IMG/VR virus record: IMGVR_UViG_2718218128_000007
Span: 1-14,524 of that record
Length of the DNA: 14,524 nt
Reading direction: 5' to 3' (one strand)
Source of the DNA: a virus
Lineage: Duplodnaviria > Heunggongvirae > Uroviricota > Caudoviricetes
Shown: positions 1 through 14,524 of the stretch, in pieces
Layout of the letters: every line of letters starts with the position of its first letter
How positions within the stretch are numbered: the first letter of the stretch is position 1
Position numbers and translations under genes: made by a program
The notes under the pieces: generated by a model
What the model was told of the DNA's origin: nothing
Seen by the model: the letters and a program-made list of their open reading frames with translations, nothing else
Databases searched by the model: none

Positions 1-669
1 TTACGATGCCATCCCCTTTTTGGTTAAAGGTTTCGCAGGATTCCCAAACACAGTCACTCCAGCTGGCACACTTTTTGTAACGACGGCTCCCATTCCTATA
101 ACTGCCCCATCCCCAATGATAATTGGTCTTTTAGGAGAACCCTGTTTTATAACTGCACCCGCCCCAACATATACGTGATCACCAATAACAACGCTTCCAT
201 TACATTTAACACCCGGAGCGAAGGTAACATAGTCCCCTATAATGCAATCATGGGCAACATATGAATATATATTCGCATGGAAAAACTTACCTATTTTTGC
301 ATCCGCTGTGACACACGTAAAAGGGCATAGGATGGCACTATCATGAATATCACTAGATTCATATTGAATACTGTGATGTCCTTTAATGGTAAAGGGGACA
401 GCACCAGCCGCCATTAACATTGAGGCTATCCTTTCTCTAACTTTACTATCACCAATAGCGACATTAAAGAACTTGTTATCATAATCAGATTCACAGAACT
501 CCTGTGGAGATAGAACATCAATTCCAGAAATTTGCTTACTTTCAGAATTCTCAACAATAAATACTAATTTATAACTATCATGAAACGGTAGTTCATCGAA
601 CATGAACTGAACTAAAGGTGCAACTTCACGACCAAAACCACCTGCACCAACAATCCCATAGATATCCAT
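1..669 (-). CDS. NeuD/PglD-family hexapeptide-repeat (left-handed beta-helix) sugar O-acyltransferase; likely accessory/moron gene
   Basis: ORF 1..690 (-). N-terminal Rossmann-like segment MDIYGIVGAGGFGREV is followed by repeated hexapeptide-like [LIV]-G-x-x-x-x units (IGDYVTFAPGVKCNGSVVIGDHVYVGAGAVI ... IGDGAVIGMGAVV). The track start at 690 is a TTG; I prefer the in-frame ATG at 669, which has a GAGGG Shine-Dalgarno a few nt upstream. Stop codon is at 1..3, so the gene is complete. Confidence 0.7.
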   Translation of the reverse strand: MDIYGIVGAGGFGREVAPLVQFMFDELPFHDSYKLVFIVENSESKQISGIDVLSPQEFCESDYDNKFFNVAIGDSKVRERIASMLMAAGAVPFTIKGHHSIQYESSDIHDSAILCPFTCVTADAKIGKFFHANIYSYVAHDCIIGDYVTFAPGVKCNGSVVIGDHVYVGAGAVIKQGSPKRPIIIGDGAVIGMGAVVTKSVPAGVTVFGNPAKPLTKKGMAS

Positions 670-904
670 AACACCCTCAGACATTATCAATTTTAGATAT
701 AGTATGTCCTTGGCGTAGATTTCTCAAGAGTGTAAACAAGGGGGGAGACTTATGCTGGAAACTTGGGAAAAAGCGACTGTTATTTTGTTCAGTAAACACC
801 ATGTAAACTCACTGCCAACTGGCAACCATTCAATACTCACACCATCGAACGGACTTCAACTGACCGCGACCTGTTTCTTCATTCTCGGATAGCGGCATTC
901 ATCT

Positions 905-1492
905 TTATGCTGGTTTTGCTGGCCAAGTGATGTCAGGTGCTTTCGATGTATCGACCTCCTGAAGTGCTTTAATGTACCAAATCCACGCAATCAGACTCGT
1001 CTTATCTTCGTCGCTAATGATTCCCAATTGCAGTTCAGTTGTCCAGAAACTGATCTTTTCCTTAGCTTTTACCAATAGAATAGCTTTTTGCTTATCAGCC
1101 ACTTCAACATCAGCTGCATACTTAGCATTTGGGTCTGATACCCACTTTTTCCCATCCCATTTCTGGAACGGATCAGAAGGAGCAATATTGGTATAGCCAT
1201 TATTAATAGGACCAATATAGTCGATAGTATGAGGCATACCGTCAGTAGTTGAATAAACTGTCTTACCTCGATGGTCTTCTTTCAAGACCCATCCTCCATT
1301 TTCGAATACAGCAACCTTTCCTGTTAGTTCATTACCCGGATCAATATCGGTAGAATTACCCGGCATACTGACGCCAATATTAATATATTCGTCTGACCAT
1401 CCTATATATTCAAAAGTTACTATATCGTAGTAATAGCAGCGGATTTCACCCGGTTCCGTTGCCAGTCCATTTTCATCAAAAACAGGTTTCAT
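905..1492 (-). CDS. tfa: phage tail fiber assembly protein (Tfa chaperone)
   Basis: 195-aa ORF with blocks typical of enterobacterial Tfa proteins (EDHRGKTVY, QKWDGKKWV, C-terminal VDTSKAPDITWPAKPA). Its ATG overlaps the stop of the upstream tail fiber ORF (TAATG on the minus strand), implying translational coupling. Confidence 0.8.
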   Translation of the reverse strand: MKPVFDENGLATEPGEIRCYYYDIVTFEYIGWSDEYINIGVSMPGNSTDIDPGNELTGKVAVFENGGWVLKEDHRGKTVYSTTDGMPHTIDYIGPINNGYTNIAPSDPFQKWDGKKWVSDPNAKYAADVEVADKQKAILLVKAKEKISFWTTELQLGIISDEDKTSLIAWIWYIKALQEVDTSKAPDITWPAKPA

Positions 1493-2250
1493 TATTTAGC
1501 CCTTACTAAAAAGTTAAATGTGATATTGCGGGGACGTGTTTCGTTGCCTCCAGGATTTTGGAATGCAGGTAAAGCTCCCCCTATCGGCTGACTGATTCCG
1601 TTGGTATATAAAGGAGCTGCATTCGATATTGTACCAAACACTACATTGCTACCATTTCCGCTTGTCCCTAAAAATTTATGCTCATGCATTTTGAAGTCAT
1701 CTGCTTGTGCAGAAAGTAAGGTTCGCCCTCTATCCACCCCGCGCCCATCATCCCAGATACGAATAAAATCACCCCGTGCGTCAGGTAATGCTAGCGCCGG
1801 AAACACTTTCGCCAGCACAGGGTAATCAGTGGCAGAGAATTTCGCGCCGTTGAACTTCAAAAACACCATACTGGACCAACTGTCGATTACAGTATTTGGC
1901 ATTGCGGCGGACGGCCAGAAGAACGGAACGCCAATAGCTGGAGCACCTTCTCCCAAACCAAGATTTTCGAGAGCCGTTTTCACCGTGCCATCCGATTTGA
2001 TATCACCAAACGGATTCTTGCGGCTTAACAGCAGAGCACGAAGCGCGGTAAGCAACTGGTCGTTTCGCCCCTTCTCCAGGCTGGCACCGGATGCCTCCAC
2101 CACGCTGCAGAGTTCTTCCTGCAACATATCAAAGTAGTCATCATCCAGATCGGTGGCAGGTGTGCCAGTCTGGGGGTTACCACGGGTAAAACCGTTCTTA
2201 CCCGCGCCGAACTTATCCTTCTGCGCGGTTTTCGTGTCTATACGATGCAT
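1492..2250 (-). CDS. phage tail fiber protein (distal receptor-binding type), possibly a truncated remnant
   Basis: 252-aa ORF immediately upstream of and coupled to tfa; Gly/Asn/Ser-rich C-terminal half ending [11 protein letters not shown], as in Stf-like fibers. It is short for a lambdoid side tail fiber and is preceded by an in-frame TAA that separates it from the terminase-like ORF. Confidence 0.55.
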
Positions 2251-2253
2251 GGA

Positions 2254-2874
2254 TTACTCCGGATATTTAAAAATTACGTAGGTATGCGACGGGCAGAGTT
2301 TGTTAAGCACACATTCGACAACGGTGTCGCCCCAGATACGCAGCGCGGAATCACAGGGATCGCCACATGTCATCCAGGTGGTGTTTGTGGCGGCTGGCAT
2401 GTTGACCTGCCAGTAATACCGCCATTCCGGCGCATTCACCGCGTCAGAACAGGCCGATGAGCAGGTGAACGTGCTTTTGTCGTATCGCGTGATGGTAGCC
2501 TCCTGTTCTTTTTTGGCGGTCAGCTCCGGATTTTTGACCATACCGCCCATTGCACCGGTGATGGTGTTGCCCTGTCTGGCAATATTTTTCACGGCACGTC
2601 GCCAGAACTCGTAGGCCACGCACCACCGCTCAAGCACCGCGAGGTCAGTCACGCACAGCAGGCCCTGACCGCAGAGTTCTTTGGTTGTCAGTTGCCACAT
2701 GATCGTAGCGAGAGGGAGATCTTCTTCAGCGAACCACTCCGGTGGCTCAACACCTTTGATGGGCGTAAAAACAGGTTCATCTTTGTTCAGGGCTCGCTTG
2801 CCGGGGTTTCCGGCCAGCGCCTTGCGCGCCGTTGGCTTGGGGCGACGCCCGGAACGCCCCGCCGTTCCAGCCAT
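2254..2874 (-). CDS. terminase small subunit, P27 family (N-terminal about 135 aa), with an atypical Cys/Trp-rich C-terminal tail; probable deletion remnant
   Basis: N-terminus [36 protein letters not shown] matches the conserved P27-family TerS start. The track start at 2883 is GTG; an ATG at 2874 is preceded by an AGGAG Shine-Dalgarno. The last about 70 aa ([40 protein letters not shown]...) do not resemble a TerS C-terminus. Confidence 0.55.
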
Positions 2875-2913
2875 ATGCGGCACTCCTGGTTAAATTTCAT
2901 TTTTCGCGGGTAT

Positions 2914-2972
2914 AAAAAAACGATGGGGCGGGCAGTCCTGAAGGCGTCAGGTCACAGGGATTTGACCCGCCC
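2914..2972 (-). other. GC-rich nested inverted repeat between HNH and TerS genes; candidate cos/packaging-site structure or intrinsic terminator
   Basis: GGGCGGG (2926..2932) pairs with CCCGCCC (2966..2972), enclosing an inner hairpin CCTGA-aggcg-TCAGG (2937..2951). On the minus strand the outer stem is followed after 5 nt by a T7 run (complement of A7 at 2914..2920). Confidence 0.3.
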
Positions 2973-2998
2973 TCCCCTCTGGCAGTGGAAACTGGTTC

Positions 2999-3349
2999 TT
3001 ACTTCAGCCGTTCACGGGCCGTCTTCGCCTTATGACACGGCCAGCACAGACTCTGCAGATTACAGTCGGCATCAGTGCCGCCATGCGCTTTAGGGATGAT
3101 GTGGTCAACGGTTTTCGCTTCACGCACCACACCGGCACGCAGACATAACTGACATAAACCTTTGTCACGTTTCAGCACACGCGCGCGGATAGCGTCCCAC
3201 TTCGAACCGTAGCCGCGCTGATGACGGGACTGGCCTGGCTTGTATTGCTTCCAGCCTTCGCTTTTGTGGCTTTCACAATAGCCTGACGAGTCAGTGGTGG
3301 TATGGCGGCAGCCGCGAACGCGGCAGGCTTTTGGGGTTCGTGGGGGCAT
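2999..3349 (-). CDS. HNH endonuclease (phage terminase-associated type)
   Basis: Cys-rich HNH signature CRVRGCRHTT...CESH ... VDHIIPKAHGGTDADCNLQSLCWPCHKAK. It sits directly upstream of TerS, the standard HNH-terS arrangement in cos-type phages. I prefer the ATG at 3349 (MPPRT..., GGAG Shine-Dalgarno) over the track start at 3418, because a terminator-like hairpin lies between the two. Confidence 0.75.
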   Translation of the reverse strand: MPPRTPKACRVRGCRHTTTDSSGYCESHKSEGWKQYKPGQSRHQRGYGSKWDAIRARVLKRDKGLCQLCLRAGVVREAKTVDHIIPKAHGGTDADCNLQSLCWPCHKAKTARERLK

Positions 3350-3360
3350 GCTGGCTCCAA

Positions 3361-3383
3361 TAAAAAGCCCCGCGACGCGAGGC
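3361..3383 (-). terminator. putative rho-independent terminator after the small membrane protein gene
   Basis: Minus-strand RNA GCCUCG-CGUCG-CGGGGC (6-bp stem including one G-U pair) followed by UUUUUAUU, about 30 nt after the stop at 3415. Confidence 0.4.
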
Positions 3384-3414
3384 TTAGACAGAAAAAACAC
3401 CGGATAAGATCTGG

Positions 3415-3618
3415 TCATTCTTCCTTTTTAATAATGACTTCTCGAGGGCGCAATTGTTGGATAGCACGACAAATACAATATGGAATAACTGCCCATGCTA
3501 CTCCCATTGCTGCACCTGCAGCCTGTTGTGGAGCACTCTGAGCACCGAAAACCCCGAGGATTCCTTCAATAAATCCAATAGCACTACACAAAAGACTGAT
3601 GACCCAGAGAATTTTCAT
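3415..3618 (-). CDS. small hydrophobic membrane protein (two predicted transmembrane segments), function unknown
   Basis: 67-aa ORF MKILWVISLLCSAIGFIEGILGVFGA...AMGVAWAVIPYCICRAI with a charged C-terminal tail. A strong AAGGAG Shine-Dalgarno lies about 9 nt upstream of the ATG, and the region is AT-rich. Confidence 0.45.
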   Translation of the reverse strand: MKILWVISLLCSAIGFIEGILGVFGAQSAPQQAAGAAMGVAWAVIPYCICRAIQQLRPREVIIKKEE

Positions 3619-3735
3619 AAACCTAAACTCCTTTTAAATAAACACTTTACTAGGATAATTCTCATAAAATGTTAGTAAAGTATTTTCAGGAAAATAGCGT
3701 ATCACTGCCTATTTTTGACACTGATGCTGGGATAA

Positions 3736-4110
3736 TTATTCCGGTCGCTGGAGTTGCTCATGATGATACAGAGCGAGAATCAGGTCATAAGACCCTTGCC
3801 TGTCTTTGTAACCAGTTTTATCAACCAATTCAGCTTTACTGATTCCGGGTAAATCAAGAATCAGATTCGCAACTTCAATTGCCCTTTGGTACAACTTACC
3901 GCCCTTTTTCTCCCCATGCAGTGGTTTTACATTCTTGAGGTAACCGCTATCCGCCAGGGCGAGAAATGTTGCCCTTGGGCATATCTTCTTTCTTGACGAT
4001 TCGCTTTCTGTAACCTCTGCGACAGCTGCATCCCATGCATCACGAGGAGGCATTGAGCTATCAGCAACCAAATGATAAGCGATTAAAGCGGCGCGCGCGT
4101 ATTGAGACAT
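3736..4110 (-). CDS. hypothetical protein (accessory gene downstream of Rz)
   Basis: ORF 3736..4161 (-). The track start is a GTG that overlaps the end of Rz; the in-frame ATG at 4110 (MSQYARAALIAYHL...) is more plausible. I recognise no family from the sequence. Confidence 0.4.
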   Translation of the reverse strand: MSQYARAALIAYHLVADSSMPPRDAWDAAVAEVTESESSRKKICPRATFLALADSGYLKNVKPLHGEKKGGKLYQRAIEVANLILDLPGISKAELVDKTGYKDRQGSYDLILALYHHEQLQRPE

Positions 4111-4148
4111 AATGCATCCATATACAAAAATCTCATGATAATACTTTT

Positions 4149-4592
4149 CTAATATGAACACTGTGATCTCACATACTCTTGCAGGCCATTCAATTGGTTA
4201 GTTATGGTTTCGATGCGCTCTCTGAGAACGAAATAATCTCGTTGAGCGGTGTCAGTAAGTCTGGGGCTGGAAGCATCATCCACGCCGGAGGCGGCGGTGG
4301 TTTTATGCATGTCCGGACAGACTGCTTTGACGTGCAGCCACTTACGACCAGCAGAAACATCAGCACGAAGACTTTCGATAGTCGCGTTAGCATCAGCAAG
4401 CTCCTTTGTATATCTGGCATCGAGTTCAGCTACATTACTTTGACGTTTCTGTATGTCAGCGATAATGGATGCGGCCTTATCGCGCTGCTTTTTGTAGGTG
4501 ATGGCGTTATCACGGTAATGATTAACCGCCCATGACAGGCAGACGATGATGCAGATAACCAGAACGGAGATAATCGCGGTGACTCTGCTCAT
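4149..4592 (-). CDS. Rz: Rz i-spanin (inner-membrane spanin), lambda-like
   Basis: 147 aa; N-terminus [34 protein letters not shown] is near-identical to lambda Rz as I recall it. Its start overlaps the R stop (ATGA), and it carries the embedded +1-frame Rz1. Confidence 0.9.
4202..4393 (-). CDS. Rz1: Rz1 o-spanin (outer-membrane lipoprotein) embedded out of frame within Rz
   Basis: ORF 4202..4420 (-) lies entirely inside Rz in another frame. It has a signal peptide plus lipobox ([20 protein letters not shown]) followed by TSKQSV...[10 protein letters not shown], matching the lambda Rz1 pattern. Start is placed at the ATG at 4393. Confidence 0.8.
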
Positions 4593-5065
4593 ACCTCAAT
4601 CTCTCTGACCGTTCCGCCTGCTTCTTTGAATTTTGCAATCAGGCTGTCAGTCTTATGCTCGAACTGACCATAACCAGCGCCAGGCAATGAGGCCCAGATA
4701 TTACTGCAACGGTCGATTGCCTGACGGATGTCACCGCGATCAATCATTAGTAAAGCGCCACGCTCCTTAATCTGCTGCAATGCAACAGCATCCTGGCTTT
4801 TAGGAGAGAAGTCTGTCAGCCCTAACTGCTTGCGGTAAGCATCCCACCAGCGTGAAAGAAGTTGATAACGGCCTGCGGCTGTTGATTTGAGTTTCGGGTT
4901 TAGCGTGACAAGTTTTCGAGGGTGATCGGAGTAATCAGTGAAGAGTTCGCCACCGACAATAACGTCATAACCGTGGTTACGTGTCGGTTGTCGCCCGTTA
5001 TCCGTTCCTTCTGACCAGGCCACCATATCAAGGAAAGCTTTACGCTGAGGATTTAGTACCTGCAT
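4589..5065 (-). CDS. R: endolysin R, lambda-type lytic transglycosylase
   Basis: 158 aa, [45 protein letters not shown]..., near-identical to lambda R as I recall it. AAGGAG Shine-Dalgarno upstream of the ATG. Confidence 0.9.
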
Positions 5066-5068
5066 AAA

Positions 5069-5404
5069 TTACTCCTTCGAGCTACCAAATTTGTTACCGA
5101 TTACTCGCATTGCAGCCCCACGAATAGCATCGACACCGATCAGCCCAACGCCGCCACCAATGGCAACAGAAAGAGATTTAGGCCATCCGACATACTCAAG
5201 AGCGGATGCAAAAGTCAGCGTCAGAGCACCACAGAGCAAAATCTCGAGCGTTTTTCGCTTCCAGCCACCACCACCGCCAAAATAGGCAATGCGCAAGCCA
5301 GCCATAACGATCGACATAATCACTGCGCCCAGCGGTGTGTCTCCACGCCACCAGCTCTGAAACAACTCCAGCCAGTCCGGCCAGGTATTTGGGTTATGAG
5401 GCAT
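5069..5404 (-). CDS. putative holin
   Basis: 111-aa ORF immediately upstream of R, with hydrophobic segments (GAVIMSIVMAGLRIAYF, LEILLCGALTLTFASAL, LSVAIGGGVGLIGV) and a GAGGTGAGAG Shine-Dalgarno. It does not resemble lambda S, so the call rests on position and hydropathy. Confidence 0.55.
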   Translation of the reverse strand: MPHNPNTWPDWLELFQSWWRGDTPLGAVIMSIVMAGLRIAYFGGGGGWKRKTLEILLCGALTLTFASALEYVGWPKSLSVAIGGGVGLIGVDAIRGAAMRVIGNKFGSSKE

Positions 5405-5545
5405 TTGTAGTTATCTCTCACCTCGCTGATACAGCAGGTGCAAATTGAGGAAACATCATGTTCCGCAAATCAGAAGCGGAAACGTCAAAGAAGCCGAGTC
5501 AAAGGATAACTGCGGGATAAACCAAGCCCAACGAACAACCAGGCC

Positions 5546-5578
5546 CAGAAACGACAAAACCCGCTCATCGGCGGGTTT
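5546..5578 (-). terminator. rho-independent terminator upstream of the holin (tR'-like position)
   Basis: Perfect 8-bp stem AAACCCGC (5557..5564) / GCGGGTTT (5571..5578) with a 6-nt loop; on the minus strand it is followed by UUUUGUCGUUUCU. It lies between the moron start and the holin start. Confidence 0.5.
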
Positions 5579-5670
5579 AAGCTGTGTGGCGAAGTAACCA
5601 CTCTTAACACATTACATGATAAAATGCGGACCGCGTTAGTAATATTTTTCTCATATATTGGGTTCACTAC

Positions 5671-6417
5671 ATGCGACATAATTTTTCTAAAGACACTATA
5701 AAAAAATTAGCAGAGCGGGCAGCATTCATTTGTTCAAACCCTTCATGCCCTAGATTGACCATTGGCCCATCAATTGATGGCAATAAATCAATCAAGACAG
5801 GAGTTGCTGCTCACATATGTGCAGCATCTCCTGATGGCCCACGCTATGACATGTCACAATCAGAAACAGAAAGGAAGTCAATTAACAATGGCATATGGCT
5901 GTGTGCTACTTGTTCTGTATTAATAGATAAGAATCAGGGGCTAGACTATCCGGCACCTGTATTAAGAAAATGGAAAAAAGATCATGAAAGCCTTATAAGC
6001 TCCTGTCTTGAAGGTTCGATTAATATTACCTTCGATGCTTTGAAATATATTCAACAGCATGATGAAAGAAATCTGGCAAAAAAGATTATAAATGAATTGG
6101 ATGATAAAGGGGCTTTGTTCGTAGAATATCATCTTGAAAACCCCTGTTTTGTTGCCGAATCACTCAAAGAGTTAAGAACATGTTTGACCTCTTTGCTTTC
6201 TCAAATCCCAGATGAATCACCTCTATTTATCGTTTGCAAGTCAATTCGAGAAGCATGCCGTTATTATATGAACAACACTTCTAAAGACGCAGGGATTAAA
6301 GAGTTAGAATTTTCGTTGGGAGCGGTCAGAAAAATCGTAGGTATCAACGTTAAAAGAATATCAGAAACCTACGGGGTTAAACCTAGCCCACAATTATCTA
6401 CCATAATGCCAGATTAA
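5671..6417 (+). CDS. AT-rich moron encoding a 248-aa protein with an N-terminal HNH-like (His-Me finger type) Cys/His motif and an uncharacterised C-terminal domain
   Basis: Long ORF on the strand opposite to all flanking genes. Motif: CSNPSCPRLT ... GVAAHICAASPDGPRY ... ERKSINNGIWLCATCSVLIDKN, i.e. CxxxxC ... AHI ... N ... CxxC, with Ser where the final His is usual. Sampled 60-nt stretches are roughly one-third GC, against roughly half or more in neighbouring genes. A terminator follows it. Confidence 0.65.
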   Translation: MRHNFSKDTIKKLAERAAFICSNPSCPRLTIGPSIDGNKSIKTGVAAHICAASPDGPRYDMSQSETERKSINNGIWLCATCSVLIDKNQGLDYPAPVLRKWKKDHESLISSCLEGSINITFDALKYIQQHDERNLAKKIINELDDKGALFVEYHLENPCFVAESLKELRTCLTSLLSQIPDESPLFIVCKSIREACRYYMNNTSKDAGIKELEFSLGAVRKIVGINVKRISETYGVKPSPQLSTIMPD

Positions 6418-6426
6418 ATCTGTTAC

Positions 6427-6469
6427 GCAGCAACAAAGTTAAACTCTATGTTGCTGCCTTAATTTTATT
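6427..6469 (+). terminator. rho-independent terminator of the moron gene
   Basis: Perfect 9-bp stem GCAGCAACA (6427..6435) / TGTTGCTGC (6449..6457) with a 13-nt loop, followed by CTTAATTTTATT on the plus strand. It sits between the moron stop (6417) and the convergent Q stop (6468). Confidence 0.55.
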
Positions 6470-6830
6470 ACTCCATTTCTAAACGAATATCCAGCATCGA
6501 GAGACAACCATCTATAAACCCTTCAGCCAACTGTATCTCTATACGTATCAATTTCTCATCTTTTTTGTATGCTTTTGCTATCTTCCTTTTCGAGATGCCA
6601 TACAGGTAATGAGCCACAATCAGAGAGTGCTCATACGGTTTTCTCTTCTTAAGAAGAGCAAGACAACCTTCAATAATTAATGCATCACTATCTGAACAAG
6701 CCTGACGTGTTTTGCTTGTATAGGGAAGAAGCCCTTTAAACCCAGCAGCTATAGGAGAATAGTCTACTCCAGAACTATCACTCGCCGCCCATGCTCCCCA
6801 ACGATCCAGAACCATCTGAATATCACGCAT
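6468..6830 (-). CDS. Q: late-gene antitermination protein Q (Phage_antitermQ type, as in phage 21 / DLP12-like elements)
   Basis: MRDIQMVLDRWGAWAA...IAAGFKGLL...ALIIEGCLALLKK...LAEGFIDGCLSMLDIRLEME matches my recollection of the small Q-type antiterminators. The track start at 6845 is TTG; the ATG at 6830 has a GGAGAAA Shine-Dalgarno. Operon position is upstream of the lysis genes. Confidence 0.75.
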   Translation of the reverse strand: MRDIQMVLDRWGAWAASDSSGVDYSPIAAGFKGLLPYTSKTRQACSDSDALIIEGCLALLKKRKPYEHSLIVAHYLYGISKRKIAKAYKKDEKLIRIEIQLAEGFIDGCLSMLDIRLEME

Positions 6831-6847
6831 CAACTTTCTCCACAAAA

Positions 6848-7171
6848 TCAGGCCAGCACACCAGTTGCCAGCGCACGATCGATAAAACGAAATATCAGCT
6901 CCAGTTGGGAGCCATACTTCTCTTCAAATGCCACGGTACCCTGGCGACGCGCCTTACGCGTTAACCAGCCTTCTGCTTCCAGCCGTGCGATAGCCGTTCT
7001 GACGGTACTCATCCCCGCGCCAATCTGACGGGCAATGGTTTCAATTGATGGCCAGCACACACCTTCGTCATTACTGAAATCAGCCAGGCGGGCCATAATT
7101 GCCACGCTGGATAATTTCATGCCTGACGCAGCGCAACCATCCCATACATAGCCGGTTAATTTAGTGCTCAT
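6848..7171 (-). CDS. winged-helix/HTH DNA-binding protein, possibly the N-terminal remnant of a replication-initiator-like protein
   Basis: 107 aa with an HTH-like segment LSSVAIMARLADFSNDEGVCWPSIETIARQIGAGMSTVRTAIARLEAEGWL. Its start overlaps the end of the upstream frameshifted gene and its stop abuts the Q start. Confidence 0.45.
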   Translation of the reverse strand: MSTKLTGYVWDGCAASGMKLSSVAIMARLADFSNDEGVCWPSIETIARQIGAGMSTVRTAIARLEAEGWLTRKARRQGTVAFEEKYGSQLELIFRFIDRALATGVLA

Positions 7172-7519
7172 GACCGACCTCTATTTCCCTGAATTTACGA
7201 CGAAACTGTTCGAGCGGGCTGAAGCACTCATGCTCATAGCCTTCACGGAGGTAGATAACCCGTTGTGTTTCCGGCTCCCAACGAATAACTCTGACGGGCA
7301 CTCCGTAGTGATCTTTGAACCAGCGGTTAACTTGTCGCAAAGGACTGTCTCCTTCTGCCGGTTGAAATCACCCACAGCCCACTCTGCAAAGCTGTGGGTT
7401 ACAATTTCCCTGTCACCTGGTACATTCACTGCATAGCAATATTCCACCTTCGCTTTTCCACCCGGTACAGGAAGCGCAATCAGTTGCGAGCGACGGTAGT
7501 GTGTTGTTAAACTGTTCAT
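7161..7519 (-). pseudogene. frameshifted gene of unknown function (two reading frames needed to span it)
   Basis: The frame from the ATG at 7519 gives [52 protein letters not shown]..., then degenerates into low-complexity sequence ending at 7181. A second minus-strand frame is open from 7367 to a TAA at 7161..7163 and reads as ordinary protein (...[61 protein letters not shown]). That second frame overlaps the HTH gene start by 11 nt in the usual coupled manner. This implies a single-base indel near 7330..7367. Confidence 0.4.
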
Positions 7520-8085
7520 GCGTTAGTTTCTCCACAACCAGAAGCAATCGACGCCACGACGCCCGGAGCTGCACACTCGCGGGCGTCATTACTTTCTGAA
7601 ATGCAAAAGATTTTGTAGACCAGTGCTGCATGCTCCTGCAGCTTCGAAATTGAGAGATACAGCTCGTCGTTAATTGCTGTCTTCTCATGCGGTTCCACTA
7701 CACCGTCTTCGATTGCTGAACGAATCTGTTTTGAATAACTGCCGATCTGTTCAATGACTTCCAGCAGACGCTGGTTAATATCGGCGTTGTCCACATCCTC
7801 GACGTCAGGAAGAGACACAAAGACGCCATTTGCAGACTGCGCCACAGCATCAGCAATGAAGTGAGTGCCACCAGCACGCTGTAAAACCATTGCCCATCCC
7901 AGCGGGAAAATCTGATCGCCATCTGCACGAAGGCGGTTGAATAAAGCGTTTTCTGTTACATCGAGCCAGTCAGCCGCTTCAGCGTAACCCCCCGGCAACG
8001 CCGCGATAGTTTTTCTGACAGCTTTCACGTACCACTCAGGCTGTTTTTCTATTTTCCAGTGATGCTTACCCACGATTAGCCTCAT
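7516..8085 (-). CDS. putative phage early regulatory protein (possibly CII/CP76-like); family assignment uncertain
   Basis: ORF 7516..8199 (-). The first 38 codons from the ATG at 8199 look non-coding (Arg/Ser/Phe-rich, over an AT-rich promoter-like region), so I prefer the ATG at 8085 ([25 protein letters not shown]...). Neither start has a clear Shine-Dalgarno. It heads the minus-strand early operon, divergent from the DUF551/AlpA pair. Confidence 0.35.
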
Positions 8086-8275
8086 CGTTCTGTGGTTAAA
8101 AATTGAAAGTGTTCTGCTAATCTTTCGGATAGATAATTGGCTGGCGTTCTCTCTGGTACACCTGGGGACAAAAAGAAACCGGAGAATGGCAGTGGACATT
8201 TCAGGTCGGGGACCTTGAAAACGTCAATATCACTCACTGGGCAGTAATGCCAAAAGCACCGGAGGCTGGAGCATA

Positions 8276-8896
8276 ATGACCACTTTTACCGACAAAGAAC
8301 TGATTAAAGAAATTAAAGAGCGTATCAGCAGCCTTGACGTGCGAGACGATATTGAGCGCCGTGCTTATGAAATTGCTCTGGCATCGCTGGAAGAGGATCC
8401 GGTGGCATGGCTGCATTCAGACAATGGCTTAGGTATTCCGGCAATAACGAGGAGTAAAAACATTGCTGACAGTTGGTTATCAAAGGGCTGGTATGTTCAG
8501 CCGCTATATATAGCCAAGCCAGTGCTGGTGGTGCCAGATGCTCGTCCGTCTTTAAATAATGGCATAGTCGGTTTTGATGAAGGCTGGAACGCCTGCCGCG
8601 CCACCATGCTTCATGGTGCCAAACCTGTAAGCCAGACTTACAAGTTGAACAAGCTATCGGGCAACTCTCCGGTAACTCCGGATGGTTGGATAAGCTGTAG
8701 TGAGCGAATGCCGAATGATAAACAGTATGTTTGGTGTTGGGGTAAGTCTTACGGCTGGACTGAGTACGATACCTTCGAAGGGTATTACGATTGGTCGAGA
8801 AACAAATGGTGGGCAGTTACTGACGATGGGGAAGAACCGGCATCGAAAGTAACCCACTGGATGCCGCTACCGGAGCCACCGCAGGAGGTGAAGTAA
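8276..8896 (+). CDS. DUF551-domain prophage protein
   Basis: C-terminal Trp-rich block DGWISCSERMPNDKQYVWCWGKSYGWTEYDTFEGYYDWSRNKWWAVTDDGEEPASKVTHWMPLPEPP is characteristic of DUF551. GGAGG Shine-Dalgarno upstream; stop overlaps the next gene's ATG (TAATG). Confidence 0.65.
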   Translation: MTTFTDKELIKEIKERISSLDVRDDIERRAYEIALASLEEDPVAWLHSDNGLGIPAITRSKNIADSWLSKGWYVQPLYIAKPVLVVPDARPSLNNGIVGFDEGWNACRATMLHGAKPVSQTYKLNKLSGNSPVTPDGWISCSERMPNDKQYVWCWGKSYGWTEYDTFEGYYDWSRNKWWAVTDDGEEPASKVTHWMPLPEPPQEVK

Positions 8897-9090
8897 TGAA
8901 CAACTTAATGACAACTAAACAAGTCGCCGACTTCTGTGGCGTTTCAGTATCGACCGTTCTTCGCTGGAACAGCGTAAACAGGAGAACTGGCCAGAAATAC
9001 AGGCCTGACTTTCCAGATCCTGATATTAAATCCTGCCCAAATAAATGGGCATCACGCAAGATATACAGGTTTGCTGGAGTTATTGAGTGA
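8896..9090 (+). CDS. AlpA/excisionase-like small HTH DNA-binding protein
   Basis: 64 aa; LMTTKQVADFCGVSVSTVLRWNSVNRR fits the Xis/AlpA-family HTH pattern (T-x-K-Q/E-V-A ... G-V-S ... T-V-x-R-W). GGAGGTG Shine-Dalgarno; translationally coupled to the DUF551 gene. Confidence 0.55.
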   Translation: MNNLMTTKQVADFCGVSVSTVLRWNSVNRRTGQKYRPDFPDPDIKSCPNKWASRKIYRFAGVIE

Positions 9091-9125
9091 TGGGTATTAG
9101 ATCATATCAGAACTAATACCCATCA
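9088..9125. repeat. 13-bp perfect inverted repeat (hairpin or protein-binding palindrome) at the boundary between the xis-like gene and the SIR2 cargo gene
   Basis: TGATGGGTATTAG (9088..9100) and CTAATACCCATCA (9113..9125) are exact reverse complements separated by 12 nt. No U-tract follows on either strand, so it is not a classical intrinsic terminator. Confidence 0.5.
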
Positions 9126-9292
9126 ATGACACAGAGCCAACTACCCACCCTGTGTCAGGGGCTAACTTTTAACACCATAATTCACCGCTAGATAAAAACT
9201 GTATTGCATTGCACGAGCGGCGCAGCATTATCAGTTAGAGTGTCTTTACCTTGTTAGGCTCCACAGTTCGCACTGTCCAACGCCTGTCACTT

Positions 9293-12200
9293 TCACACGC
9301 TGCGCCTTCGAGAATATTCATTTAATCGCTGATAACGAACATCTTGCTCCAGTTGTGGAGCAGCTTGAACAATTTGAAGCAAGCATTGCCCCAACTCTCG
9401 AGGCCCCCAGTGTTGGTCGGCAATCACGGCATTCAGCAGGGATAGAGCGTCCGCAGGATATCGGCTGCAAATATCTGATTTTAGCAAAAGGCGAACGTCG
9501 TAGCTAAGGTGTTCGAGCGGTTGCAGCCAGTCCTGCACCACTGCCAAAGCCGCCGGAAATTCACCTCGGGCAGCAATCACCATACGAGTCAACGATTCGG
9601 ATATGCGTGGGGTGGCCAAGTTGCGGGACTTTGGCCAAACCTGTTGCCAAAATGGCTGGACACGATTTTTCCAATACTCCTCGCGCTGATCGCCCGCACC
9701 TTCAAGTGCCTGGTATAACGCCTGCGCGGCTACCTCCAGACCTTCTTGTGGAAGAGCACTAATTGCCGTTCGGAACTCCTCCACGGTATATCCCTCGGTA
9801 GGGCCCAGAGCTGCATAAGTCAGGAAAGTAGCGAATTGCTGCCGGTGCTCGCCAAGATCAGAATAGTGATTGGCGCTCTCCAAAAAATCTGACTTGAAAG
9901 CTATCAGCAACGGTTCATACAGGCGTGGCGACCAGAGGAAGCCTTCCCACACAGCTTGTGCTTCGACGGGATTACTCCAAGCAAACAAGGGCAATAGATA
10001 CTGTTCGGTCCAAGGTCGATCTACGCGAAAAAATGCGATCAGCCGCGACCCCAGCAACACCCGACCATGGCGGAATAGCTCTATCTGTACATTACACAAT
10101 TTGGTGAAAAGTGTTTTCAATTCAACAGGAAGCAAATCATTGTCATTCGGGTTCTGTTTGAACCATAGGGTGATCAGTGATTGCGTGACATGCCCAATGG
10201 GATGATTGATCGCCGTAGAAACAGGATCATAGGTCTCAATTCCGTTTCGAATGGTGCTAGACTCTGGGCTTGTTTCTATCATCAGAACCCGACGACAAAG
10301 GGCCAGTAGAATCTCCTCGTGGCAGAGGATGGGCTTCGAAGCCTCCTCCATCCACCAAGTGACAGCGTGGGAAATCTCCTGAAGTACTGCGTCAGGCATG
10401 TCAAGCACCAACGGTGCGGCGTACCGCCACGAACGCAAAATCATCCCTGGTTCAGCCCAAGTCTGCAGAGCTTCACGCCACCGACCAACAGGCCACACAT
10501 CATCTTGTGATAGTTTACGTAACGCATACAGACTGTGAAAAAAGCGCGTACGGCAAACATCACTCCAAGTGTCCTCATAGAAAGGCAGTCTTTCTGGCAT
10601 AGGCTTTGCGAGCCATTGCACTAATTCCTGCCACTTACGGGGCGCAATGTCGACATCTATACTCTCCTCGAAGCCTGGATCACCGGTTCCGCTCATCCAG
10701 TGAGAGAATTCATCACGCTCGTTGGTTGCCAGTTGCCATTTTGGGTATGCTGTGGATATTTCCGTCAAACGTGTAGCCGCAGACTCTCCCAAAACAAGGC
10801 CCGCTCCCCTGAGCTTCGCTAGACACAACCAGACGGAATGAGCCACCAAATAATGCCACCTGTCTGCTTCCAAATTATCCTCGTACATCTCGCGCGGAGG
10901 CCCTGCCAAGATAGCAGTTTCCAGACGCTCTTGTGCAATTCCTGTCAGATGTCGTCCCTGCAAAACAAACAGTCTGAATACCTCTCGCCCAGTATCCGTG
11001 GCCCACAACCACCATGAACCGTCCTCTAACAACCAATTAACCCACCGCTCAGGTGGTATGCAGTTGTCTTGGCTTGCGGAAAACAGTGCCAGACGTTTGA
11101 AGGTGGGATATGGCAACTCAAACCAATTCTGAGCAATGCGCGTGGCCTGATCGCTGTCTTTGGCTCGAACGGCTAACCATGAATCCCGAAGTAATTCAAT
11201 CAGGCTCACCCAATCGCGGAACCCCCGGTTCTGCCAGTGCGGAGTGATGGACGGCAAATCCCAATGCGAGCGGTCGTGACGATCGTCGGACTCTCCCAAC
11301 TCCCGCAACAAGTCCAGTGCATCACGCAACAACTGCTGAAAATCTTCCAACAGGTATGGCAAGGACGATTTCCATGACTCGTCAGCAAGGTCGAACAGGG
11401 TTGAACGTACGTAATCAGCAGTCAGCACCAGCTCCCAATCCACCAATTGCTTGATTCGCAAGGGCTCATCAGTGCTGCTCGAATCGTCTTCACTATAGCG
11501 AAACGGCCGCCTCAACATAACCTTGGGAGAAAGCAACTCGCGTAACTCCAAACGCAATGTAGTCGTCAAGCCTTCATTCTTTAAGCGGTTTTGCCAACGA
11601 TACAAATCCAGGTTCTGCAATGGCGATTTCACACGACCACTAAGCAGAAGCCGCCATAAAGTAGACATAGGTGGACCAGGAATAGCCAGGGGGGAATGCA
11701 AGAGAATTTCATCTAACTCAGAAGTCTTACGCTCCCGCATCAGTGCTGCTAAGCGATCTAGTTCGCTCTCAATCAGAAACATCCAACGGTCGTGTATTTG
11801 TCCGCCGCGTTCAGCAATCCATATGATCAACCTAGGGTCGCCCAGATAACGAACTAGCCAACGGGCTATATGGGACATTACGTCATCCCATTTGCTAGCA
11901 CTGACACATCCAGAAACCAGCGACATCTGCGGGGCTAGCTCATAGGGCGCAGGACGCTGAACCAGACTGAATCGGAGTTTCGGGTCAATTTCGACATGCG
12001 GAGATACACAAAAGCGTGGCAGATCGCTGTATTTAAATCGTTCGTCCGAGAAAGCTTTCAATAACCAATCCAGCGGCGGTGCAGGATTGAGTTCCGCAAA
12101 ACATTTTGCTGGTAAACCTGACTTATCAGATAAGGCCCACATCATCCGACCAACGAAATCGTCCTGCCGAGTGCTATCCTGCGGGCGGGCCAGAGCATGT

Positions 12201-13120
12201 TTGACGACAATGGCTTCTTTGCCTTGTATACCATCGCGATAAATATTTGCCCAAGCACGCAATGTATGGTGCATCGCTGAATGATCATTGGAGTCCGCCG
12301 GTACGGTGTAAAGGATGGGGGTGACCCCCTTGGCCTCCCACTCGATAGATTTCCGGTGCTCCTGCCCCGGCTCACATTCTCCTAGTGCCCATACTTGCGG
12401 CGTGACTTCACCGAGCCTCCGATCTGCTGCCAGTGCGTCCATCATATAGCGTAGCACCGGGTCGTTGATGCTGTAGCCCACGAAGCAGACCACGTAGTTA
12501 CGGAACAAGTCACTTACAAAACGGGCAGCCCAGCGTTCCGTGAGATAGGCTAAGCCAAAGTCTCCACTAGTGACAACCAGACGATTCAGAGCAGTATCGT
12601 CTGTCTTTTCCGGTAACAACCCATGCAGGTAGACTATTCCGTCCCAGCGACTATTTTTCGGAATTGGCAGCATCGGCGCTACATAAGCCTGAAACGCTTG
12701 GGCCGTGCGTTTAGCTGCCACATGAAATAAGCGGTCAAAGTTGGTAGTAACTAACCGAAGGGCACCATCGCGACTACGCGCCAAACGCAACAGCGCCATC
12801 TGAGTATCAGTTGCGCCTCTATAGTGAAGTTTTGGCTTAAGGGCTTGTTCCAGCGCGCGACGGACGGCTATACGCTGTCCCGGTAGGCGCCGTTCCAACA
12901 AATCCAATGTGGCGTCGAACTGACCGCGCTTGAAGGCCTCACACTCAATTTCTGAAAGTGTTGTTCCGTTCAACTGGTAAATCCGCTTTACCAATCCCTT
13001 GAAACCTGGCAAACCAGCAGGGTAGGAAATGCCTGCCCCGCAGAAGAACACCACGCGGCCTTCCTCGTGCGCCTGCAAAAGTTCATCCGGAATATCAGGG
13101 CCGTTGGTGATAAATTGCAT
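9293..13120 (-). CDS. large single-gene SIR2-domain protein (defence-associated sirtuin-like): N-terminal SIR2 NADase-type domain plus about 1000-aa Trp-rich helical C-terminal region; candidate anti-phage/abortive-infection effector
   Basis: 1275-aa uninterrupted ORF with a strong Shine-Dalgarno (AGGAGGAAAAGGA) before the ATG at 13120. N-terminal motifs of the prokaryotic SIR2 family: VVFFCGAGISYPAGLPGF (NAD-binding GAGIS-type), LVTTNFDRLF (Asn 127), IVYLHGLL (His 165, 38 residues after the Asn) and CFVGYSINDP. No Walker A/P-loop is visible. Located between the integrase and the xis-like gene. Confidence 0.8.
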   Translation of the reverse strand: MQFITNGPDIPDELLQAHEEGRVVFFCGAGISYPAGLPGFKGLVKRIYQLNGTTLSEIECEAFKRGQFDATLDLLERRLPGQRIAVRRALEQALKPKLHYRGATDTQMALLRLARSRDGALRLVTTNFDRLFHVAAKRTAQAFQAYVAPMLPIPKNSRWDGIVYLHGLLPEKTDDTALNRLVVTSGDFGLAYLTERWAARFVSDLFRNYVVCFVGYSINDPVLRYMMDALAADRRLGEVTPQVWALGECEPGQEHRKSIEWEAKGVTPILYTVPADSNDHSAMHHTLRAWANIYRDGIQGKEAIVVKHALARPQDSTRQDDFVGRMMWALSDKSGLPAKCFAELNPAPPLDWLLKAFSDERFKYSDLPRFCVSPHVEIDPKLRFSLVQRPAPYELAPQMSLVSGCVSASKWDDVMSHIARWLVRYLGDPRLIIWIAERGGQIHDRWMFLIESELDRLAALMRERKTSELDEILLHSPLAIPGPPMSTLWRLLLSGRVKSPLQNLDLYRWQNRLKNEGLTTTLRLELRELLSPKVMLRRPFRYSEDDSSSTDEPLRIKQLVDWELVLTADYVRSTLFDLADESWKSSLPYLLEDFQQLLRDALDLLRELGESDDRHDRSHWDLPSITPHWQNRGFRDWVSLIELLRDSWLAVRAKDSDQATRIAQNWFELPYPTFKRLALFSASQDNCIPPERWVNWLLEDGSWWLWATDTGREVFRLFVLQGRHLTGIAQERLETAILAGPPREMYEDNLEADRWHYLVAHSVWLCLAKLRGAGLVLGESAATRLTEISTAYPKWQLATNERDEFSHWMSGTGDPGFEESIDVDIAPRKWQELVQWLAKPMPERLPFYEDTWSDVCRTRFFHSLYALRKLSQDDVWPVGRWREALQTWAEPGMILRSWRYAAPLVLDMPDAVLQEISHAVTWWMEEASKPILCHEEILLALCRRVLMIETSPESSTIRNGIETYDPVSTAINHPIGHVTQSLITLWFKQNPNDNDLLPVELKTLFTKLCNVQIELFRHGRVLLGSRLIAFFRVDRPWTEQYLLPLFAWSNPVEAQAVWEGFLWSPRLYEPLLIAFKSDFLESANHYSDLGEHRQQFATFLTYAALGPTEGYTVEEFRTAISALPQEGLEVAAQALYQALEGAGDQREEYWKNRVQPFWQQVWPKSRNLATPRISESLTRMVIAARGEFPAALAVVQDWLQPLEHLSYDVRLLLKSDICSRYPADALSLLNAVIADQHWGPRELGQCLLQIVQAAPQLEQDVRYQRLNEYSRRRSV

Positions 13121-13306
13121 TCCTTTTCCTCCTATCCAATGTGGATATTCATTCGAGCAAATTAGGGGACAATGGGGCTACAGATTATTAGACCGACTAT
13201 GCAAACACTGCTTCCTTGCAAGCTACCCTGATCTAGCCAAATCACAATGTCCGCTCTCCTATCAAAGCAAACGGCTAGATTTGATTGTATTATGGCTACT
13301 CAAGGA

Positions 13307-14524
13307 TCAGTTAGAGTCTGAGCAAGTAATTATCGATTCAATCCTCTCCCACCATGCCAAGTAAGCTTTACGCTGTTCTTCTAGATAATCGCTCTTATCA
13401 TAAACTTGCCATACCCCTGGCAGCTTATGACCAAGCATGATTTCTGCGATATGAGGCGCAGTAAGATCAGAAAAATTTGTTCGTGCTGTCCGTCTCAAGT
13501 CATGAAGAGACCAATGAGGGAATTGATACCCAAAACGCCGCCATGCGTATTGCATTAAATTGTAAGGTAGCGACTGCAAGGATGTCCGACCAACTGGTTC
13601 CCTGCTTCCTTCCTTAGTAAAAAGCATATCGGAACCGTTGTTCATAGAGATAACGTATTTTATAAGCTCTTCAACCGGTTCAATAATGGGCCGCTTTAGC
13701 GGTTCGTCTGTTATATCCCCTGTCTTATGTCGTTCTGGTGGTACAGTCCATATTTTATTAATGAAATCAAAATCGTCCACCTTGGCAGTAATTAGCTCTG
13801 AACTACGGCAACCAAAATGCAGCAATAGTTTAATGAAGGCCCGGTATTTAGGAACCATTCGAGAACCATCGATCGCAGCATAAAGGATTTTAATTTCATC
13901 ATGTGTCAGAAACCGTTTCTTCTGACCTTTACGGATATCCATATCTTTACCCGTGATATCCGACAGCGGGCGAGTTTCAATGAGCTTTCTCTTATACGCC
14001 CAGACATGGGCCTGCTTTGCGTTAATTAGCAATCGGTCTGCTATTGCTGGAGTCTTAGTGCTAAGAGGCTCCAGGACTTCTAACCAATCATGCAATGTAG
14101 CTGCATCGTGAGGGATATTCCCGATTTTAGAGAACAGGTGCAGCTCAAACGAGCGGAGTATCTGTTCAGAACCTTTTTTATTTTTTACACAATATGCTTC
14201 ATACCAAGCACGGATCACAGATTCTACCGTCATGGCTTCAGTAGCTTTACGTTTTTCTGCCAGCTTGACCAATCGTGGATTGCGGTTTGACTCGAGTTCA
14301 CCACGAAGACGGATAACTTCTTCTCTGGCCTCTTTTAGTCCAGTTGACGGGTAAGTTCCGATATCAAGACGCTCACCTTTCCCCGCCCACTGATAACGAT
14401 ATTGGAACACTACGCGACCTTTCGGTGATACTCTAACAGACAGACCATCACGATCGGATTTAACCAAAACCTTATCACGTTCCTTTCCAACGACTGAACG
14501 CAACCACGCATCAGACAGCGCCAT
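13307..14524 (-). CDS. int: tyrosine site-specific integrase (P4-like, with arm-type N-terminal domain)
   Basis: 405-aa ORF whose ATG is at the window edge (14522..14524). The N-terminus (MALSDAWLRSV...GLSVRVSPKGRVVFQYRYQWAGKGERLDIGTYP...LKEAREE) resembles P4-type integrase arm-binding domains. C-terminal catalytic-region motifs: HDLRRTARTNF and LGHKLPGVWQVYDKSDY (candidate tyrosine nucleophile). Confidence 0.85.
   Translation of the reverse strand: MALSDAWLRSVVGKERDKVLVKSDRDGLSVRVSPKGRVVFQYRYQWAGKGERLDIGTYPSTGLKEAREEVIRLRGELESNRNPRLVKLAEKRKATEAMTVESVIRAWYEAYCVKNKKGSEQILRSFELHLFSKIGNIPHDAATLHDWLEVLEPLSTKTPAIADRLLINAKQAHVWAYKRKLIETRPLSDITGKDMDIRKGQKKRFLTHDEIKILYAAIDGSRMVPKYRAFIKLLLHFGCRSSELITAKVDDFDFINKIWTVPPERHKTGDITDEPLKRPIIEPVEELIKYVISMNNGSDMLFTKEGSREPVGRTSLQSLPYNLMQYAWRRFGYQFPHWSLHDLRRTARTNFSDLTAPHIAEIMLGHKLPGVWQVYDKSDYLEEQRKAYLAWWERIESIITCSDSN

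Follow-up and report, generated by a model that had tools for sequence, protein, structure and literature searches.

A prophage cargo gene joining a Cap5-type HNH domain to DUF6650: a candidate self-contained anti-phage nuclease

Type VI Thoeris systems are characterized by an operon that couples a TIR gene to the gene of a DUF6650 protein, ThsG (preprint 10.64898/2025.12.03.692087, December 2025). Upon infection the TIR component makes a cyclic ADP-ribose, 2'cADPR, to which the TIR-linked ThsG responds specifically, and added 2'cADPR arrests cells bearing the system (10.64898/2025.12.03.692087). ThsG has been modelled as a hexameric ring or tube with positively charged inter-protomer pockets and lumen. 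Some versions possess N-terminal membrane helices and the route to toxicity of the others is stated to be unclear; ThsG is described as either bare or membrane-anchored, and fusions to HNH domains are unmentioned (10.64898/2025.12.03.692087). DUF6650 is also among the domains newly implicated in defence by DefensePredictor, via DS-27: this is a single-gene SMEK-DUF6650 system, protective in Escherichia coli MG1655, whose C-terminal region its authors assign to DUF6650 (HHpred 0.88, residues 169-292; Science 2026, PMC13092281). Here we report a DUF6650 protein of another kind, encoded in the IMG/VR virus record IMGVR_UViG_2718218128_000007 (Caudoviricetes), whose positions 1 to 14,524, the whole stretch of DNA analysed, we call the window. 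The gene at 5671..6417 (plus strand, stop codon included) starts with ATG and encodes 248 amino acids, in which an N-terminal HNH domain of the type found in Cap5 is joined to a C-terminal DUF6650 domain (HNH-DUF6650 below). We read it as a lysogenic-conversion cargo gene of lambdoid prophages that encodes a self-contained anti-phage, abortive-infection nuclease, and assign this reading a probability of about 0.5.

The chromosome of E. coli S3 contains the window at 100% identity, and there it covers a badly eroded lambdoid prophage between yjjG and prfC. The S3 copy of the gene, likewise 100% identical, is annotated as ‘hypothetical protein’ or ‘DUF6650 family protein’; its product is identical to RefSeq WP_001406331.1 (E. 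coli), to which DefensePredictor gives the label ‘predicted novel defense gene’ and a log-odds value of 8.6 (PMC13092281). A first-pass annotation of the window, made from the letters alone, had placed a 248-residue open reading frame (ORF) on the plus strand between the genes for the antiterminator Q and the holin, and this is exactly where it was found (ORF list, PF06530, PF05106). Searches with the protein recovered 335 homologues at E<=1e-3, the best 120 of which are nearly all about 250 amino acids long. They are spread over the Proteobacteria, Bacteroidota, Cyanobacteria, Acidobacteriota and Firmicutes, and across these phyla the mean column identity is 51%. The ratio of nonsynonymous to synonymous substitution (dN/dS), computed against an 85%-identical Klebsiella allele, is 0.049 and equal in both domains. 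Given the number of homologues, the column identity and this ratio, the ORF is a genuine gene and no chance reading frame, and it is under strong purifying selection. A non-functional remnant was considered as its identity and is ruled out by the selection data. The allele occurs at at least 99.7% identity in 25 of 5426 complete E. coli genomes, being intact in 24 of these 25, and a second allele occurs in 15 of the 5426.

The HNH domain (residues 1-111; 5671..6003, plus strand) adopts the beta-beta-alpha-metal type of nuclease fold and was delineated with PADLOC models, solved Cap5 chains and an AlphaFold2 model. It displays the motifs C21-x4-C26, A46-A47-H48-I49 and N73-G-I-W-L-C78-A-T-C81-S82, with the catalytic His48 encoded at 5812-5814 and Asn73 at 5887-5889: these are the Cys/His motifs that had earlier been read as HNH-like, all of them are present, and the Cap5-type matches bear that reading out. 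The PADLOC matches are confined to residues 1 to ~130 and include PDC-M68A (7.5e-27), endonuclease effectors of the cyclic-oligonucleotide-based anti-phage signalling systems (CBASS; 4.8e-21), SAVED_HNH (4e-19) and the N-terminus of Shedu SduA (4.7e-8). Solved Cap5 chains match the domain at 1e-8 to 3e-4, and all Cap5 and SAVED_HNH model matches stop by about residue 115-130. Pfam and NCBIfam scans of the 248-residue protein returned HNH_2 at E 0.086 only, and no DUF6650. With profile searches of the N-terminal region pointing to the Cap5-type HNH and the ORF conserved intact in relatives, neither of the two outcomes that the first-pass annotation would have held against itself, a confident non-nuclease assignment or an ORF neither expressed nor kept intact, was observed.

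All of 118 close homologues have H48, N73, C26, C78, C81, D86 and N88, and 117 of them have C21; H48 and N73 are invariant also in an alignment of 130 sequences. The two Cys pairs, C21 with C26 and C78 with C81, are predicted to form a Cys4 zinc site. The earlier observation that Ser replaces the usual last His of the motif reflects a family-wide state: among the 118 close homologues position 82 is Ala in 61, Ser in 57 and never His. Cap5 chains and some distant HNH-DUF6650 subfamilies keep a His after the second Cys pair (CxxCH). D86, which lies on the same helix four residues beyond position 82, and N88 may replace the missing His. An AlphaFold2 monomer model of the full protein, built from the 130-sequence alignment, has a mean predicted local distance difference test score (pLDDT) of 92.6 and a predicted template modelling score (pTM) of 0.82. 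An earlier model, based on 25 sequences, had reached a pLDDT of only 40-55 in the HNH half, which the 130-sequence model resolved; a Foldseek search of the PDB with the 25-sequence model returned only non-significant helical bundles.

The C-terminal domain (residues 112-248; 6004..6414, plus strand), some 130 residues of which the first-pass annotation had left unassigned, is a DUF6650 (PF20355) helical-bundle domain. A profile was required for this identification, because a single-sequence search with the C-terminal half retrieved close relatives only. The profile, made from residues 112-248 of 21 family members and searched against 1.84 billion cluster representatives, gave 1139 matches at E<=1e-3 and 464 at E<=1e-10; the majority are stand-alone proteins of 150-180 amino acids with near-full coverage of the domain. 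Three proteins that it matched at 1e-20 to 1e-27 (P0129, P0136 and P0148) are members of PF20355.3 at 5e-18 to 8e-16 in a Pfam scan, and a comparison by hhalign of the residue 112-248 set with the stand-alone DUF6650 set gave a probability of 99.9% (E 5.5e-32, 127 columns). The older PF20355.3 model does not reach the 248-residue protein in the Pfam scan; the precomputed PF20355.5 (DUF6650) label stands on every listed homologue of that protein. A core of E156, S164, R169, C196, R197, L216, R220 and G224 is common to the HNH-fused and stand-alone versions, with R169, R197, R220, E156 and S164 invariant in both. The region is modelled with high confidence as an all-helical bundle; among solved structures we found no specific counterpart of it and no known DNA-binding fold.

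DUF6650 occurs in several domain architectures. It is fused to HNH in the query family and in several more distant subfamilies, and it follows an Mrr_cat (PF04471) restriction-nuclease domain in three Streptomyces proteins of ~395-401 amino acids (P0356, P0358, P0359), which makes a second, independent nuclease-DUF6650 architecture. Transmembrane helices accompany it in P0144 and P0201, and a HATPase_c domain is added in a further arrangement. Because a constant domain is joined in this way to varied effector-like domains, the architectures argue that DUF6650 acts as a sensing or an assembling and regulatory module.

The genomic position of the gene bears on how it might be deployed. Its slot is bordered on the left by the gene for antiterminator Q (6468-6845, minus strand; PF06530, E 6.6e-52), which is convergent with the cargo, while the gene for a lambda-family holin (5069-5404, minus strand; PF05106, E 2.6e-27) forms the right border of the Q-to-lysis interval. 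Comparison of the window by blastn with two other-cargo prophages with similar Q and holin genes (L002 and L003) delimits an exchangeable cargo cassette of 820 bp at 5652-6471. Its flanks, 5556-5651 and 6472-6941, are kept at 85-88%, and unrelated genes on the strand opposite Q replace the interior. In E. coli T16R the occupant is a gene for 339 amino acids (L002 2948-3967, plus strand); in E. coli C51 it is a gene for 313 amino acids (L003 2529-3470, plus strand) followed by one for a predicted membrane protein of 153 amino acids (3480-3941, plus strand), and PADLOC models match none of these alternative genes. The suggestion that the gene is a moron is thereby supported, and the proposed survey of the same slot in related prophages turned up other cargo. 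The ORF had also been described as visibly more AT-rich than its neighbours. Its G+C fraction (0.378) is indeed below that of the window (0.480), the holin gene (0.530) and the lysozyme gene (0.497), but Q itself stands at 0.413: the contrast is one-sided, Q being AT-rich too. Deviant composition, conserved flanks, exchangeable content and a hairpin terminator, by which morons and cargo hotspots are recognised, are all found at this gene.

The hairpin, at 6427..6469 on the plus strand, is a probable cargo terminator: a 9-bp GC-rich stem (6427-6435 / 6449-6457), with a folding energy of -15.2 kcal/mol (z = -4.8 versus shuffles), is followed by CUUAAUUUUAUU. Since homology with the related prophages restarts only at 6472, it belongs to the cassette. 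The claim that the gene has its own terminator can stand to the extent that the hairpin is real, but ‘strong’ was an overstatement; the loop is long and the U-tract interrupted, because of which a simple terminator scan left the hairpin unflagged. Lying between convergent gene ends, it could stop transcription of Q as well. At the other end, beside the 5' end of the cargo, is a conserved non-coding block of 96 bp (5556..5651, minus strand; CGCGGTCCGC ... TGTGTTAAGAGTGGT ...), at the end of which a minus-strand terminator scan matched a GC-rich hairpin (stem 5578-5557) with a T-run, an intrinsic terminator. The block recurs in E. coli, Klebsiella and Buttiauxella, in six prophages altogether (copies aligned from L002, L003, L094, L097 and L009). 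To judge from this conservation and from the terminator, it probably comprises the Q-dependent late promoter, the qut site and a tR'-like terminator for this type of Q; -10 and -35 hexamers could not be placed within the block, and an Rfam scan of 5300-6900 had no match. If this is right, the cargo separates Q from the late promoter, and late transcription does not read it.

In the enterobacterial subfamily this position is constant: the gene faces a Q of the PF06530 type in convergent orientation and stands upstream of the lysis cassette. The same slot is used in E. coli S56 and F8704-2, whose HK97-like prophages look intact; by the second E. coli allele (60% protein identity), which is accompanied by different holins; and in Klebsiella aerogenes (85%), Buttiauxella (56%) and IMG/VR viral contigs. 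In this group of lambdoid prophages the interval from Q to the putative late promoter behaves as a cargo hotspot. Because the gene is on the opposite strand, has its own terminator and is flanked by Q and the putative late promoter, we infer that it is placed to be expressed in the lysogen and not together with the late genes.

The relatives of the gene were surveyed for partners. The ORFs around full-length HNH-DUF6650 genes at 26 genomic loci were compared all against all by BLAST, which revealed no shared neighbour family. A Pfam scan of 27 of the 44 immediately flanking ORFs, the other 17 being apparently spurious high-GC ORFs and transposase or integrase fragments, found a single TIR protein. 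This is encoded in an Acidobacteriota metagenome-assembled genome (L021), where an AbiJ_NTD3-TIR gene (2934-3809, plus strand), confirmed by the TIR-type models of PADLOC, lies 73 bp upstream of a co-oriented HNH-DUF6650 gene (3882-4616, plus strand) whose product is 39% identical to the query. Its gene order would make it an operon resembling type VI Thoeris in which ThsG bears an HNH domain, an arrangement undescribed in the type VI Thoeris preprint. Full-length relatives are also present on 16 IMG/VR contigs: a tblastn search with a single TIR query found no TIR gene at these 16 viral loci, and at four of them the neighbours of no known family had no TIR-type PADLOC match. No TIR was seen among the 14 window proteins scanned or in the annotation of the S3 locus, and three loci with stand-alone DUF6650 had no Pfam-detectable TIR neighbour. 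With a TIR neighbour at 1 of about 42 related loci, the HNH-DUF6650 family is by this survey mostly solitary, and type VI Thoeris would be one among the contexts of DUF6650.

Other neighbours were noted in individual subfamilies. On P2-like viral contigs the relatives adjoin an Old-like ATPase or the PDC-S31 candidate, and such sites are recognised defence hotspots. At three loci a conserved protein of ~385 amino acids is encoded on the same strand within ~80 bp 3' of HNH-DUF6650 (L030 4385-5542, L114 4846-5997 and L115 4653-5810, all plus strand); it has no PADLOC match, occurs in a subfamily about 35-37% identical to the query and may act as a partner there alone. A conserved protein of 261 amino acids, likewise with no PADLOC match, is convergent to an allele of ~55% identity in Sodalis and P2-like viral contigs (L004 6915-7700 and L109 4900-5685, both minus strand, and L110-L112). 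In L111 an insertion sequence interrupts the HNH-DUF6650 gene.

We favour the self-contained abortive-infection nuclease as the function of the cargo gene and can sketch how it might work. The HNH-DUF6650 protein would be produced in the lysogen, where DUF6650 would hold it in an oligomer whose Arg-lined pockets receive an infection cue. Occupancy of DUF6650 by the cue, or a re-arrangement of the oligomer, would switch on the HNH domains, which would then cut DNA indiscriminately and so stop both the infected cell and the phage, in a manner analogous to Cap5 in CBASS. The trigger would be detected by the HNH-DUF6650 protein alone; candidates for it are a phage product and a small, anionic ligand resembling a nucleotide. 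Autonomous sensing is favoured because almost all relatives are without a TIR or another conserved partner. The earlier proposal of a defence or exclusion role has in this way received indirect support, from the DefensePredictor listing of the exact protein and from the validated defence roles of the DUF6650 family.

Several points weigh against this reading. HNH motifs end in a His (or Asn) that binds the metal from the helix immediately following the CxxC, and here that position is occupied by S82; catalytic competence of the domain is thus an assumption, made because H48, N73, D86 and N88 are invariant. A promoter scan placed no convincing sigma-70-like promoter for the gene. 2'cADPR, the sole known ligand of DUF6650, has to be made by a TIR protein, and this locus has none. 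WP_001406331.1 does not appear in the table of tested systems of DefensePredictor, and its listing is hence a prediction alone (PMC13092281). Finally, neither BLASTP nor single-sequence hhalign detected significant similarity between DS-27 and the C-terminal domain of the query. The relationship of the two thus appears distant at best, and the precedent of DS-27 rests on the 88% HHpred match of its authors, because our own profile missed the DUF6650 region of DS-27.

The cargo gene could instead be an orphan Thoeris-type effector, inert alone and dependent on a cyclic ADP-ribose signal (2'cADPR or an isomer) from a TIR protein elsewhere in the cell, from another mobile element or from the infection itself: in effect, an equivalent of Cap5 parted from its signal producer. 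The specific response of TIR-adjacent DUF6650 proteins to 2'cADPR, the invariance of the putative ligand-pocket residues R169, R197 and R220 in HNH-fused and stand-alone members alike, and the co-oriented AbiJ_NTD3-TIR gene 73 bp upstream of the 39%-identical Acidobacteriota relative are all in keeping with such an effector. Yet 25 of the 26 genomic loci have no adjacent TIR and the single-query tblastn found none at the 16 viral loci, nor is there one among the scanned window proteins or in the annotated S3 locus; the enterobacterial subfamily moves as a one-gene prophage cassette; a dN/dS of 0.05 and the wide spread are hard to square with function only in the rare genomes that happen to supply a matching TIR; and DS-27 works as a single gene. 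We therefore regard an orphan effector as possible but doubtful. A related and bolder idea, which we consider rather unlikely, is that DUF6650 is a general receptor for cyclic ADP-ribose or a related nucleotide, the Thoeris counterpart of SAVED or CARF, and that the gene encodes a free-standing ‘listening’ nuclease. If true, it would fire on an NAD+ breakdown signal derived from TIR or SIR2 proteins and made by other immune systems of the same cell or by an invading phage. This would amount to cross-talk between separately inherited defence modules; the S3 gene lies 2.9 kb from that of the NADase Dsr1.

A restriction-like nuclease with no signalling step, cutting incoming phage DNA that is, for example, modified or marked, as does the prophage-encoded McrA, would assign DNA recognition or multimerisation to the helical C-terminal domain. 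It would account for the absence of a partner gene and for the tag ‘RM_Type_II REases HNH endonuclease’ given by DefensePredictor (listed value 0.35, which we take as coverage), and the positively charged lumen of the ThsG ring could in principle bind nucleic acid. However, the best HNH matches are ligand-gated Cap5 effectors rather than restriction enzymes; DUF6650 occurs also without a nuclease and with membrane helices, and a response to a small molecule has been demonstrated for it; and no known DNA-binding fold was found. Restriction of this kind is distinctly improbable. Least probable, in our estimate, is a gene serving the phage, either as a cyclic ADP-ribose decoy or sponge that blunts Thoeris or as a selfish, homing-type HNH endonuclease. 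The gene is phage-borne, with full-length relatives on the 16 IMG/VR contigs, sequestration and degradation of 2'cADPR are known phage strategies, and HNH homing endonucleases are common in phages. A sponge, though, needs no invariant nuclease active site, and the orientation against the late operon with an own terminator is the layout of lysogen-expressed genes. As to homing, the HNH is Cap5-like, unlike the PF01844 packaging or homing type, which is encoded separately in the window; the gene is inserted neither in nor beside a target gene, and its surroundings show no sign of an intein or intron.

Whichever way the trigger operates, the family is informative about DUF6650. Its association with a Cap5-type HNH, an Mrr-type nuclease and membrane helices, together with the TIR/HNH-DUF6650 operon, argues for a receiver or assembly module with swappable toxic effectors. 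HNH-DUF6650 offers a directly testable nuclease read-out for DUF6650 activation, and it bears on the point left open in the preprint, namely how ThsG versions without membrane helices are toxic. The trigger of an HNH-DUF6650 protein with no TIR would show either that DUF6650 senses infection autonomously or that orphan effectors eavesdrop. The hotspot between Q and the putative late promoter in turn points to the occupants in T16R (339 amino acids) and C51 (313 and 153 amino acids) as possible further defence or exclusion genes.

The remainder of the S3 prophage runs on the minus strand in the order: integrase; Dsr1; regulatory remnants, in which only fragments of DUF968 and of a helix-turn-helix (HTH) gene survive; the genes for Q, the holin, the lysozyme and Rz; a DUF6979 gene; an HNH gene of the packaging type (PF01844; 2999-3418); a small-terminase gene that is truncated and continues into a piece of tail fibre; a gene for tail-fibre assembly; and a sugar acetyltransferase. 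Two ORFs are deletion chimeras: that at 2254-2883 (minus strand), adjoining the tail-fibre fragment, fuses the N-terminus of a P27-family small terminase to unrelated sequence, and that at 6848-7171 (minus strand) fuses the HTH gene fragment to the last residues of DUF968. The S3 prophage is therefore defective, though its cargo gene is intact. The gene for Dsr1, a full-length defence-associated sirtuin with a SIR2 NADase (9293-13120, minus strand; matched end to end by PADLOC PDLC02183 with 2711.7 bits and annotated dsr1 in S3), lies beside the integrase gene (13307-14524, minus strand). Its proximity to HNH-DUF6650 in S3 results from the prophage deletions, and Dsr1 was rejected as a conserved functional partner: the full-length prophages of S56 and F8704-2 with HNH-DUF6650 have no Dsr1 within 9 kb of it.

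Between Rz (4149-4592, minus strand) and the packaging-type HNH gene, the DUF6979 gene (3736-4161, minus strand; PF22399, 1.2e-27) is a second small cargo-like gene. Embedded in Rz in another frame is an ORF of 72 amino acids (4202-4420, minus strand), unannotated by RefSeq in S3, which has a lipoprotein signal (…LLVVSGC…) and by this signal and its position appears to be the expected Rz1 spanin partner. The sugar acetyltransferase at the prophage end (1-690, minus strand), just past the tail-fibre assembly gene, is of the NeuD/PglB/VioB family. A MaoC dehydratase is encoded near it beyond the window (L001), and the two may form a conversion module modifying surface polysaccharide.

The placement of the gene recalls, in part, that of the Shiga toxin genes (stx), in as much as it too is cargo between the Q gene and the lysis cassette. 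The stx genes lie downstream of the late promoter and terminator and are co-transcribed with the late genes. HNH-DUF6650, in contrast, is antisense, has Q on one side and the putative late promoter/terminator block on the other and ends in its own terminator, and the first-pass description of its slot as the classical toxin position does not hold. In prophage cargo hotspots it is instead comparable to the PADLOC candidate PDC-M68A, with the same Cap5-like HNH module at the N-terminus, and to ORF2 of P2-EC46 (AJ512680), a ‘putative lysogenic conversion protein’ of the Z-region that is 50% identical over residues 2-109. The matches to both stop at about residue 130 and their C-terminal domains are different. 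Membership of PDC-M68 itself was considered and rejected, only the HNH part matching (positions 1-130 of 253 in the subunit A model); other HNH-DUF6650 proteins likewise match PDC-M68A over the HNH part alone, and PADLOC-DB 2.0 has no DUF6650 model.

With Cap5, the HNH-SAVED effector of CBASS (PDB 7rwk, 7rwm, 8fm1, 8ysq), the protein shares an HNH domain that is significantly similar in both its sequence and its fold. It differs in the absence of a SAVED domain and of a CD-NTase neighbour, its neighbours being Q and holin; in the zinc site, which is Cys3His in Cap5 and predicted as Cys4 here; and in the residue after the CxxC/H, a metal-binding His in Cap5, Ser in the query and Ala or Ser in the family. 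DS-27 (‘SMEK’, WP_087896215.1) is comparable as a single-gene E. coli system with a C-terminal DUF6650 by its authors' assignment, and differs in its N-terminus, SMEK against HNH. ThsG is the closest in the C-terminal half, where the last 137 residues of the query belong to the same family, PF20355, with the E/S/R/R/R core conserved. The query adds the N-terminal HNH and, like about 41 of the 42 related loci, is without a TIR gene, so that the operon of ThsG with TIR by which type VI Thoeris is defined does not exist at this locus. The fusion of HNH to DUF6650, its solitary occurrence and its slot in prophages are undescribed in the searchable literature, in which DUF6650 is already catalogued and the protein itself already flagged computationally as defensive.

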